Of a stretch of DNA of 64,000 bases, positions 43,453-46,248 are shown piece after piece (position 1 is the stretch's first letter; every line of letters starts with the position of its first letter). Origin of the DNA: Treponema sp. Lineage in GTDB: Bacteria > Spirochaetota > Spirochaetia > Treponematales > Treponemataceae. The notes below the pieces were generated by a model, which did not search any database, had not been told where the DNA came from, and worked only from the letters and a program-made list of their open reading frames with translations. Position numbers and translations under genes: made by a program. The DNA is taken from NCBI GenBank assembly GCA_024693045.1, contig JAILLQ010000038.1, forward strand, positions 86,978-150,977, read 5' to 3'.

Positions 43453-44412
43453 CTAATCATCCCAGCTTCCAGTTTTTATCTGATCTCGGATTCTCTTCCA
43501 GCTTTCAAAACGCTTTTCCGTTATTTGGCCATTTTCAACAGCTTCTTTTATTGCACATCCCGGTTCACTTGTATGCGTACAATCCAAGCCGAATTTGCAT
43601 TTACCAACAAAGGGTTTAAATTCTCTGAAATACAAATGCAAATCATCAGCTTCTATACCGTGAAGCATAAAACGGCGGATTCCAGGGGTATCGATTATAG
43701 ATGCTCTTTCTCCCTTTATTCCACCTGTATAAGATGTGTTTAATTCAAGTCTATTCAATGTACCTTTTGTAGTAGTATGATTTCCCCGGCCATATTTTTT
43801 AGAAAGACTTCCTGTACGCAAAACACAGGATTCATCCAGTACATTTACCAAACTGGATTTACCCACTCCGGATTGTCCTACAAAAGCACTTAATTTATCC
43901 CTGATGAGTTCTACGAATTCGGAAACCCCTTCCCCTGTTTTGGCAGAAATACGCATAACTTTATAGTCTAAATCTTCCCAAATTCTGAGCTGTTCTTCTG
44001 CTTCAGGGTTATTTGTAATCAAATCGTATTTATTGCAAACGATTACTGGTTCCAGTCCAAGCATTTCGGCCTGAGCCAGTTCCCTATCTATAAATCTTGG
44101 TCTGAATGGAGGTTCATCTGGAGTTGTTACAAGAATCATGTAATCAACATTAGCTGCCAACAATTGTGGACAGCGACCTTTTACATTCCATCGTACGAAT
44201 TCATTTTTTCTTGGACAGAGAGACAGGATTTGCCCTTTCATCTCATCCATTTCATCCGGCTCAATTTCTACGACATCACCAGGGGCAAGAGGATTGTAAT
44301 ATTCCTTATCTGATTTTAAGACCTTTCCCTTAATCGAACAATTACGAGTAATTCCGTCGTCACACTCAACTTCAAAAACATTATTAGTTCCCGCAAGAAC
44401 AGTACCATTCAT
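43453..44412 (-). CDS. rsgA: Ribosome small subunit-dependent GTPase A
   Basis: AANVD, NKYDL, GQSGVGKSSL, HTTT, DTPG and C..C.H..EPGC. Confidence 0.96.
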   Translation of the reverse strand: MNGTVLAGTNNVFEVECDDGITRNCSIKGKVLKSDKEYYNPLAPGDVVEIEPDEMDEMKGQILSLCPRKNEFVRWNVKGRCPQLLAANVDYMILVTTPDEPPFRPRFIDRELAQAEMLGLEPVIVCNKYDLITNNPEAEEQLRIWEDLDYKVMRISAKTGEGVSEFVELIRDKLSAFVGQSGVGKSSLVNVLDESCVLRTGSLSKKYGRGNHTTTKGTLNRLELNTSYTGGIKGERASIIDTPGIRRFMLHGIEADDLHLYFREFKPFVGKCKFGLDCTHTSEPGCAIKEAVENGQITEKRFESWKRIRDQIKTGSWDD

Positions 44413-44420
44413 ATGTAGTA

Positions 44421-44449
44421 ATTATGAAGGGTAAACGGGTAATTTTCAA
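44421..44449 (-). promoter_or_regulatory. sigma70 promoter of rsgA-mutS2
   Basis: TTGAAA-17-CATAAT, then 8 nt to ATG. Confidence 0.6.
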
Positions 44450-44452
44450 GAA

Positions 44453-44953
44453 GTAGAGTCAAAGCTATGGGAAAAATATACTTATTTGCTCTTTAGCGGG
44501 TCCCAGCGACGTGAAAATCTTTTGTGGTGCTCCCGGTTTTACTTCTTCGGGTCCTTCGGACATTTGTTTTTCGGACCGGGGCCTCCCTAAAGCATTTTCA
44601 CTGCGTCCCGCTTTCGGTCAGTTTTATCTTTTTGCTTTTAGCTTTGTCTTTGAAAAGTGTAAGCGGAAAGGTAGAGACAAAGCTATTGGAAAAATATACT
44701 TATTTGCTCTTAAGCGGGTCCCAGCGACGTGAAAATCTTTTGTGGTGCTCCCGGTTTTACTTCTTCGGGTCCTTCGGACATTTGTTATTCGGACCGGGTC
44801 CTCCCTAAAGCATTTTCACTGCGTCCCGCTTTCGGTCAGTTTTACCTTTTTGCTTTTAGCTTTGTCTTTAAAAAGTTTAAGCGGAAAGGTAGAGACAAAG
44901 CTATGGGAAAATTATGCTTATTTGCTCTTTAGCGGGTCCCAGCGACGTGAAAA
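44453..44953. repeat. Tandem array of a GC-rich, self-complementary 218-bp unit (2 full copies plus a 65-bp third copy)
   Basis: Units start at 44453, 44671 and 44889. Copies 1 and 2 differ at 8 of 218 positions by my count. Multiple internal inverted repeats. Confidence 0.95.
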
Positions 44954-45038
44954 AAATTAATTTTTTTTAATAATATATATTTATTCAATTGTGTATTTTC
45001 ATTATTATTTCGTTTATCGTTCGAAAAAACTGGGTTCT

Positions 45039-45067
45039 CTGAAAATCGACGATAGAGTAACTATAAT
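45039..45067 (+). promoter_or_regulatory. sigma70 promoter of the ornithine decarboxylase gene and rnhA
   Basis: CTGAAA-17-TATAAT. Confidence 0.55.
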
Positions 45068-45084: not shown

Positions 45085-46248
45085 GTGTACAATCGTAAAG
45101 ATTATGTAAGCGACCATGAATGGACTCGCTTTTTGGATTTTTCGAAGGACTTAGAAACTCCGAATATTGTAATCAACTTGAACACAATCAAGATGAATTT
45201 CGTCAAGCTAAAAAATTCTTTCCCTTACGCAAAGATTTTTTACGCAATCAAAGCAAACCCTGGGGAACCTGTATTAAAAATGCTAGCAGAAATGGGTTCA
45301 AGTTTTGATATCGCATCCCGCTATGAACTTGATATGATAAAAAAGTTTGTAGACGACCCTAGCCGACTTTCTTACGGCAACACAATCAAAAAGTCAAAGG
45401 ATATTAAATATTTTTATGACAATGGGGTCCGCCTTTTTGCAACAGACAGCAAGGACGATCTTAAAAATATTGCAGAATACGCACCTGGTTCAAAAGTATA
45501 TGTCCGAATTCTGGTTGAAAATTCAGACACTGCTGACTGGCCTCTGAGCCGCAAATTCGGCTGTCATCCAGATATGGCATACGACCTACTTGTTCTGGCA
45601 AAAGAACTAGGTCTTAATCCATGGGGAATCAGTTTCCATGTAGGAAGCCAGCAGAGGGATATAGGTGCCTGGAACGATGCAATTGCAAAAGCAAAGTACC
45701 TCTTTAATTCTCTGGAAGAAGAAGAAGAAATCCGCCTGCAAATGATTGATATGGGAGGAGGATTCCCAGCTTCTTATATAGAAACAACAAATGATCTTTC
45801 TGTTTACGCTTCTGAAATTACCCGCTTCCTTACAGAAGATTTTGGCGATGATTTACCAGAAATTATCTTAGAGCCTGGAAGAAGCCTGGTTGGTGACAGC
45901 GGAATTCTTACAAGTGAAGTTATTTTAGCCGCAAGAAAAAATAATACTGCCTTGACTAGATGGATTTACATAGATGCCGGAAAATTTAACGGACTTGTTG
46001 AAACTTTAGACGAATGCATAAAGTATCCTCTTATAACTACTAAAGACGGAGACAAAGAAGGAGAAGTAATAATTGCCGGTCCAACATGTGACAGCATGGA
46101 TGTAATGTATGAGACCACAAAATATCGACTCCCAATAACACTAAAACAGGGAGACAAAATTTACTGGCTTTCTACAGGAGCCTACACTTCAACTTATGCA
46201 TCCGTTGCATTTAACGGATTTCCACCAATAAAAACATATTATATGTAG
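45085..46248 (+). CDS. Fold-type III PLP-dependent ornithine/lysine decarboxylase
   Basis: GTG start; FYAIKANP, FDIAS, FHVGSQ, DMGGGFP, EPGRSLV, GPTCDSMD and GAYT. Confidence 0.92.
   Translation: MYNRKDYVSDHEWTRFLDFSKDLETPNIVINLNTIKMNFVKLKNSFPYAKIFYAIKANPGEPVLKMLAEMGSSFDIASRYELDMIKKFVDDPSRLSYGNTIKKSKDIKYFYDNGVRLFATDSKDDLKNIAEYAPGSKVYVRILVENSDTADWPLSRKFGCHPDMAYDLLVLAKELGLNPWGISFHVGSQQRDIGAWNDAIAKAKYLFNSLEEEEEIRLQMIDMGGGFPASYIETTNDLSVYASEITRFLTEDFGDDLPEIILEPGRSLVGDSGILTSEVILAARKNNTALTRWIYIDAGKFNGLVETLDECIKYPLITTKDGDKEGEVIIAGPTCDSMDVMYETTKYRLPITLKQGDKIYWLSTGAYTSTYASVAFNGFPPIKTYYM

Follow-up and report, generated by a model that had tools for sequence, protein, structure and literature searches.

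The 218-bp tandem repeat between rsgA and an Orn/DAP/Arg decarboxylase gene of Treponema sp. is, on balance, best explained as a tandem-amplified copy of a terminator-associated, REP/ERIC-like family of structured repeats together with approximately 95 nt of spacer. This family of long-hairpin repeats (~100-170 nt) in gut and rumen Treponema is undescribed, and its kind, the bacterial intergenic repeat, is familiar. No description of it was found in the literature. Hereafter, the window means the whole 64,000-nt stretch of DNA that was analyzed, and the R strand is the strand reading GTGGGACGCAGG...CCGTCGCTGGGACCCGC, which is the minus strand of the window. Coordinates of the features are given in Table 1.

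Table 1. Features of the window locus and other tandem arrays of the module in the same genome
Feature	Position	Strand	Details and basis
rsgA (ribosome small-subunit GTPase A)	43453..44412	-	Pfam RsgA_GTPase, 1.8e-45
rsgA promoter-like site	44421..44449	-	TTGAAA-17-CATAAT; between array and rsgA
Tandem array	44453..44953	.	Unit of 218 bp (the module with ~95 nt of local spacer) present 2.3 times; Tandem Repeats Finder, BLAST
Module copy a	44498..44609	-	R strand: GGGACGCAG...GTCGCTGGGACCC; sequence, covariance-model hit, fold z = -3.6
Inverted repeat in copy a	44511-18 / 44594-601		GTGAAAAT / ATTTTCAC
Inverted repeat in copy a	44532-80		CCCGGT / ACCGGG
Apical 49-nt sub-hairpin, copy a	44532..44580	+	Tip GTCC-TTC-GGAC at 44551-61 (minus-strand reading GTCC-GAA-GGAC)
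Linker hairpin	44639..44685	.	11-bp inverted repeat TAGCTTTGTCT/AGACAAAGCTA, 25-nt loop; second copy 44857-44903
Module copy b	44716..44827	-	Sequence, covariance-model hit, fold test
Apical domain counterpart, copy b	44750-44798
Truncated module copy c	44934..44953	-	R-strand 3' end alone (CACGTCGCTGGGACCC)
Decarboxylase promoter-like site	45039..45067	+	CTGAAA-17-TATAAT
Orn/DAP/Arg decarboxylase gene	45085..46248	+	Pfam Orn_Arg_deC_N, 1.1e-50
Array elsewhere	contig C30		3 tandem copies, period 144-145
Array elsewhere	contig C33		2 copies and a truncated one, period 171-174
Array elsewhere	contig C25		1 copy and a degenerate one, period 186

Tandem Repeats Finder returned a period of 218 with 95% matches, zero indels and 2.3 copies at 44453-44953. 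When the first unit was searched against the genome by BLAST, the second unit was 96.3% identical to it (8 of 218 sites differing) and the third, partial unit of 65 bp was 95.4% identical. The tandem array of slightly diverged full copies reported in the preliminary description, which was made from the sequence, was thus confirmed, and every inverted repeat listed there was found in place on inspection. Its statement that the unit was much more GC-rich than its flanks held in a moderate form (GC content 0.43-0.445 in the array versus 0.30-0.345 in the adjoining spacer), and the mutually exclusive folds that it proposed proved to be merely a trivial outcome of neighbouring hairpins having GCGGG/CCCGC in common. 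Fold stability was significant for each unit on both strands (z = -3.5 to -3.8), and none of 200 dinucleotide shuffles was as good.

Each unit contains a conserved hairpin module of 112 nt, which in copy a is lengthened by closing pairs G-C/C-G to 44496-44611, and copy c is the final 20 nt of the 65-bp partial unit. The apical sub-hairpin of the window modules was specific to the subfamily of their own genome, and its tip stem covaried between loci (GTCC/GGAC versus GACC/GGTC). No second locus was found for the linker part of the unit (~95 nt) among 151 genomes of the genus. Since the linker is unique to the window locus and the module recurs elsewhere, the array is a tandem duplication of the module and its local spacer, and the linker hairpin is part of that spacer, co-duplicated with the module. 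Protein coding was considered and rejected: ORFs of 67-112 codons cross the repeats, yet 218 is not a multiple of 3, the periods of other arrays vary by indels (144/145 and 171/174), and short family members lack an ORF. It is also very improbable that the 2.3-copy array is an artefact of the assembly. The genome is a metagenome-assembled draft of 58 contigs, and metagenomes yielded no second, independent assembly of this locus; against an artefact, however, the copies differ at the 8 of 218 sites mentioned above, three other tandem arrays with different periods are present in the same genome, and tandem pairs occur in independent assemblies.

Both promoter-like sites lie between the array and their respective genes, which places the array upstream of two divergent promoters. 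As noted in the preliminary description, the array starts 3 bp from the rsgA promoter-like site, where a block ending in TTCAAGAAG is kept in relatives. No promoter-like site for the R strand was seen upstream of the window array. A single relative (G157) keeps rsgA beside the decarboxylase gene, with RsgA 86% and the decarboxylase 89% identical, and its spacer is 237 nt long and element-free, compared with 672 nt in the window. The difference of 435 nt is near 2 x 218, and conserved blocks flank the array on both ends in this comparison. Thus, given that the spacer of this relative is without the element, the array is a lineage-specific gain. The outer arms of the window copies were short (3-8 bp), no T-run adjoined them, and no terminator-like site was detected at these copies. 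Judged from the short arms and the missing T-run, they appear not to act as terminators at this locus. The array probably has little or no function there. Separately, an AT-rich inverted repeat at 44976-45065 (TATATTTATTCAATTGTGTATTTTCA ... TGAAAATCGACGATAGAGTAACTATA), which surfaced as a spurious miRNA hit in Rfam, extends across the decarboxylase -35/-10 region, where it could serve as an operator.

In its own genome, the recurring part of the unit corresponds to unit positions ~42-164 and was found at five loci, of which four, including the window, are tandem. Module copies at C30, C33 and C25 were 79-84% identical to the window module, and the remaining locus (C44) is a shorter variant having only both end motifs in common with it. 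Relatives in other genomes matched the module ends alone. Using a covariance model built from nine short family members, we found hits in 54 of the 151 genomes sampled in the genus, the number per genome running from 1 to 20 or more; G092 contained 28 exact copies of the 3' motif. Many family copies lay at contig ends, a sign of repeats that break assemblies. Bona fide members also turned up in another family of the same order, and 20 genomes from other genera within the taxonomic family of the window's own genome yielded none. Named carriers, all labelled Treponema by NCBI, were Treponema sp. JC4 (locus L085) and rumen metagenome-assembled genomes from yak, goat and buffalo. The dispersed repeat suspected in the preliminary description is therefore a non-coding structured family present at many loci (four others in its own genome and 54 of 151 genomes) and not a single-locus oddity, and the tandem clustering also recurs, both in its own genome and in other genomes.

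Comparison with Rfam gave no family matching the unit. For the window locus at E <= 10, the best entries were eukaryotic snoRNA and miRNA noise far below threshold, and five other family loci with short variants had no match at the gathering threshold. A scan of a genome collection with a 14-mer yielded mostly chance hits in GC-rich genomes, and both motifs occurred together at 11 loci only. A common neighbour gene was rejected as an explanation, as the neighbours of the arrays, among them rpoN and a tlpA-like/ccdA operon, have nothing in common; a sequence likeness at two truncated copies was simply the 3' end of rpoN. Beside the C33 array, an 84-codon ccdA-like fragment (C33:513-764, plus strand) lies near an intact ccdA/tlpA-like operon and may be a duplication remnant. 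One further hit of the covariance model, L349 (G288:C47:53428-53526), was a false positive: it is a near-perfect palindrome of ~145 nt (MFE -144.7 kcal/mol) and not a family member.

On the minus strand of the window, members share an invariant asymmetric basal motif (GGGACGCAGG...CCGTCGCTGGGACCC), which on the R strand forms the invariant internal loop 5'-G(U/C)GGGACGCAGG ... CCGUCGCUGGGACCCGC-3'. Above this base are a covarying, A/U-rich stem of 14 bp and then a variable apex able to hold nested hairpins; the outer arms (10-25 bp) are locus-specific and mostly framed by an A-run and a T-run. When 60 distinct copies were aligned on the model, 95.3% of the cells were paired (75.3% when shuffled), changes on both sides were observed in 26 of 36 pairs, and the covariation score was 0.548; shuffles scored 0.17 and slid partners no more than 0.133.

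Moreover, one strand was clearly favored. The R strand was ~10-15 kcal/mol more stable in every member outside the tandem subfamily of the window's own genome, and it was the stabler strand in 60 of 62 metagenomic copies (median -9.2 kcal/mol). In the outer arms of genome-derived copies, we counted 101 G.U wobbles on the R strand (45 beyond the conserved U.G) versus 3 A.C, and the corresponding numbers in the 62 metagenomic copies were 45 and 1. The wobble asymmetry and the fold stability together suggest that selection maintains the structure in a single strand with R polarity, which is not the strand as it was read in the preliminary description. Of the tandem structured ncRNA proposed there, the structure therefore stood, with strong covariation, and the strand did not, family-wide selection being on the minus strand. 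This selection might act at the RNA level, to judge from the wobble asymmetry and gene orientation only; a single-stranded DNA intermediate would give an equal asymmetry.

The subfamily of the window's own genome was a partial exception to this trend. Its apical domain (49-50 nt) was 3-7 kcal/mol stabler on the plus strand, the basal part was neutral or slightly in favor of R, and the whole folded slightly better on the plus strand; the apical domain on that strand may be a nested hairpin of opposite polarity in the predicted fold. Nested hairpins of the form CAAAAYGC-loop-GCRTTTTG were also seen at a constant place within the modules of L036 (G007) and of L249, L244 and L248 (G136), and in G007 and G136 the orientation of their loop was independent of that of the host module.

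With regard to genomic context, pairing of the arms extended well beyond the conserved core (median 15 bp, compared with 3 in the control). A T-run of five or more followed the 3' arm in 50 of 73 genome-derived and 37 of 62 metagenomic copies, and an A-run preceded the 5' arm in 48 of 73. The context set comprised 75 unique loci, at 67 of which both neighbouring genes were called (simple ORF calls). At 28 of these 67 loci the neighbours ran in the same direction with the R strand in the sense of the genes, at 11 they ran in the same direction with the R strand antisense, 21 loci lay between convergent genes and only 7 between divergent genes. At least one gene 3' end adjoined 90% of the loci, at a median of ~55 nt from the stop codon. 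With its divergent neighbours, the window locus falls into the rare class, and the module there sits outside its usual setting. Other, unrelated palindromic repeats were found to fill one intergenic slot across species (L284, L287, L300, L286 and L301), for example of the types GTCGGGTCAAGCCCGACAAT / CCCGGGCTTGACCCGGGAAT and GTCATTGCGAGGAAC...GCAATGAC; gene ends of Treponema are a hotspot for hairpin repeats.

The relatives were sampled at one genome per species, and recent events are below this resolution. At orthologous gene ends, the module was flipped within unchanged arms in G066 and G136 relative to G007, and further flips distinguished L079, L139 and L095 from G154, and G077 from G124; in L095 the module was swapped for another interior type. 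Orthologous copies showed compensated changes in both arms and interior. One gene end existed in a series of states. It was a plain terminator (A8-CGGGC-TTTC-GCCCG-T9), had another hairpin module of 85 nt in the loop between those same arms, contained this family's module in either orientation, or was occupied by unrelated palindromes. Downstream of a 108-aa ORF, L275 (G027) and L278 (G006) have the arms A8-CGGGC...GCCCG-T(7-9) in common, which are empty in G006 (loop TTTC) and filled in G027 by an 85-nt sequence (TCCCGTCGGAAC...GATTCCGACTCC). The latter is a sister module, with ends faintly like those of this family, and the two loci form a clean empty/filled pair. These states point to terminator apices as sites occupied by hairpin modules. 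In this family itself, no empty site with identical arms was found at three loci: G066 was without the whole unit of G007, arms included (45 versus 147 nt between conserved flanks), and at another site G136 held a different long hairpin. The arms may have arisen in several ways: gene conversion may have kept the cores of old terminators evolving in concert, and could also have flipped a quasi-palindrome; the element may have been inserted; or template switching may have symmetrised the flanks.

Tandem growth has also recurred. Besides the arrays of the window's own genome, two-copy arrays were present in three other genomes (periods 136, 141 and 180 nt), one of them with an A-B-A-B-A layout. 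Three arrays in the own genome start, in R orientation, with a copy keeping the 3' part only (G000 C33:972-1040, C25:7203-7271 and window 44889-44953, each at the R-upstream end of its array), and isolated 5'-truncated copies were present in metagenomes (L371, L455 and L460). No copy keeping the 5' part only was seen, in a metagenome sample that was fetched by the 3' motif and is hence biased. Long hairpins promote replication slippage, and slippage is the simplest explanation for the tandem duplications.

These observations bear on the possibility that the module is a functional RNA in itself, whose invariant loop, exposing UGGGA/GGA-type motifs, would serve as a protein-binding 3'-UTR tag or sponge, the tandem arrays then being multi-copy RNA loci. 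Such a role would agree with an asymmetric loop that is invariant across two families of the order, covarying stems, strand-specific wobble pairs, the preference for sense orientation at gene ends and the recurrence of tandem copies. However, copy number ranges from 0 to ~28 among species of one genus, two thirds of which are without the module; the module flips at orthologous sites, and its apex is nested and freely variable. Furthermore, an R-strand promoter-like site upstream was missing from the window array, and no Rfam family was matched. We therefore regard a functional RNA as unlikely compared with a terminator-associated repeat.

We also searched for a mobiliser, as the preliminary description had proposed a non-autonomous element of HUH/REP type. 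Among the 151 genomes, 54 contained the module, 52 contained a Y1 HUH transposase (PF01797) and 13 contained both, compared with 18.6 expected; the presence of the transposase does not track that of the module. PF01797 had no hit in the seven most copy-rich genomes, G092, G007, G136, G152, G019, G077 and G154 (10-28 copies each), and no RAYT gene flanked by module copies was observed. A single IS200/IS605-type Y1 transposase gene (C47:7488-7844) is present in the window's own genome, away from every module copy. Because Y1 co-occurrence is absent, the REP/RAYT reading fails its defining test. Neither a GTAG-type foot nor a target-site duplication was seen, the module being flanked by inverted and not by direct repeats. 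No autonomous parent or long version was detected in five copy-rich genomes, where the 5' and 3' motifs always paired within 60-120 nt. The only gene bracketed by inverted copies encodes thymidylate kinase, not a transposase. Carriage by phages was likewise rejected, as two 17-mer matches in viral contigs were without the 5' motif and resembled the chance matches common in GC-rich contigs.

A related possibility is mobility at the DNA level, the element moving in folded single-stranded form and being recognised at its base by a putative recombinase, comparable to attC sites or the ends of IS200/IS605; the strand asymmetry would then reflect a single-stranded DNA substrate. Its appeal lies in the attC-like build of the module (conserved base, extrahelical bases, variable apex, length of 70-120 nt and strand specificity), its presence or absence at orthologous sites of close relatives, the many copies at contig ends, and tip loops that on the R strand are GNA triloops (GAA/GCA), which are very stable in single-stranded DNA. 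On the other hand, apart from the negative results for a Y1 transposase, a target-site duplication, an autonomous parent in copy-rich genomes and a bracketed transposase gene, the base is without RYYYAAC/GTTRRRY boxes, orientation follows gene direction, and no consistent pattern by chromosome half was observed in the complete genome G154. Such an element appears about as improbable as a functional RNA.

Taken together, these results favor a terminator-associated repeat, for which we propose the following scenario. The whole element is a very long, bidirectional-terminator-like hairpin at a gene end, and it presumably forms the 3' end of the upstream gene's transcript. Selection would keep the RNA of R polarity in its folded state because the fold terminates transcription and/or protects the 3' end. 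The conserved centre might spread or be homogenised among terminators by gene conversion, by quasi-palindrome template switching or through an enzyme that reads the invariant loop. The copy in the window would have landed between divergent promoters, where a terminator is not needed, and might then have been amplified by slippage or unequal recombination, favored by its long hairpins. The invariant asymmetric loop of 25 nt exceeds the needs of a terminator and points to a specific partner. More tentatively, and in our view doubtfully, this loop might be the handle of a new system, either a transposase-independent "hairpin-in-hairpin" element that uses gene conversion or template switching between quasi-palindromes to colonise terminator apices in both orientations, or an RNA tag in 3' UTRs that a dedicated protein recognises; in the latter case, the tag would mark out a post-transcriptional regulon of rumen Treponema.

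Interspersed palindromic repeats influence where transcripts end, how stable mRNAs are and how genomes rearrange, and to our knowledge they have barely been described outside Proteobacteria and Firmicutes. The present family is a clean case: uncultured rumen and gut Treponema contain hundreds of copies, whose conserved centre lies inside locus-specific terminator arms. Since the module has been flipped and swapped at orthologous sites with no recognisable transposase, spreading without an obvious enzyme becomes a testable question. In addition, the module repeats break assemblies and yield spurious ORFs of ~70-110 codons in carrier genomes, and the covariance model can be used for masking or annotating them.

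With respect to known systems, the module appears, by the tests run, to work like ERIC, REP or Correia-type repeats of transcript ends and to be a member of none of them. Bidirectional intrinsic (Rho-independent) terminators resemble it in the order of A-run, G+C-rich stem and T-run, in their position after stop codons and often between convergent genes, and in having G.U pairs on the transcribed strand only. Unlike them, the family has a hairpin of 100-170 nt with a conserved insert of 70-120 nt and an invariant internal loop, and the window copies are without a T-run. Integron attC sites are similar in their conserved base with extrahelical bases, variable apex, length (57-141 nt), strand-specific fold and occurrence in arrays. 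However, the attC boxes R'' (RYYYAAC) and R' (GTTRRRY) are missing from the module base, which reads G(T/C)GGGAC...GGGACCCGC, and so are cassette ORFs, the module arrays being ORF-free with periods of 218, which is not a multiple of 3, and otherwise 136-186 nt. Furthermore, attC sites form a single array beside intI, whereas the Treponema copies are dispersed at gene ends.

Correia/NEMIS repeats of Neisseria and other MITEs are likewise non-coding elements of 100-160 bp that are co-transcribed with their neighbours and form long hairpins acting on transcript ends. Correia repeats derive from a transposon type and show a TA target duplication and terminal inverted repeats of 26 bp, whereas no target-site duplication, usual terminal inverted repeats or parent IS was found for the Treponema module. 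REP, BIME and REPIN elements are also extragenic palindromes at gene ends that occur in clustered arrays and have proposed roles in mRNA 3'-end stabilisation and termination. A REP has 20-40 nt, conserved arms and a GTAG-type foot, whereas the Treponema module has a conserved centre of 70-120 nt and varying arms; REP/RAYT elements are mobilised by a Y1 HUH enzyme, whereas the module is without RAYT association. Finally, ERIC/IRU sequences (imperfect palindromes of ~127 bp) are alike in size, in their long imperfect hairpin with a conserved central part, in their location in transcribed intergenic regions and 3' ends, in a copy number that is very variable between species, and in having no known transposase. 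They are unrelated in sequence and phylum, and compared with them the Treponema module differs in that its arms are locus-specific and have A/T runs, sub-hairpins are nested within it, tandem duplication is frequent and flips occur at orthologous sites.
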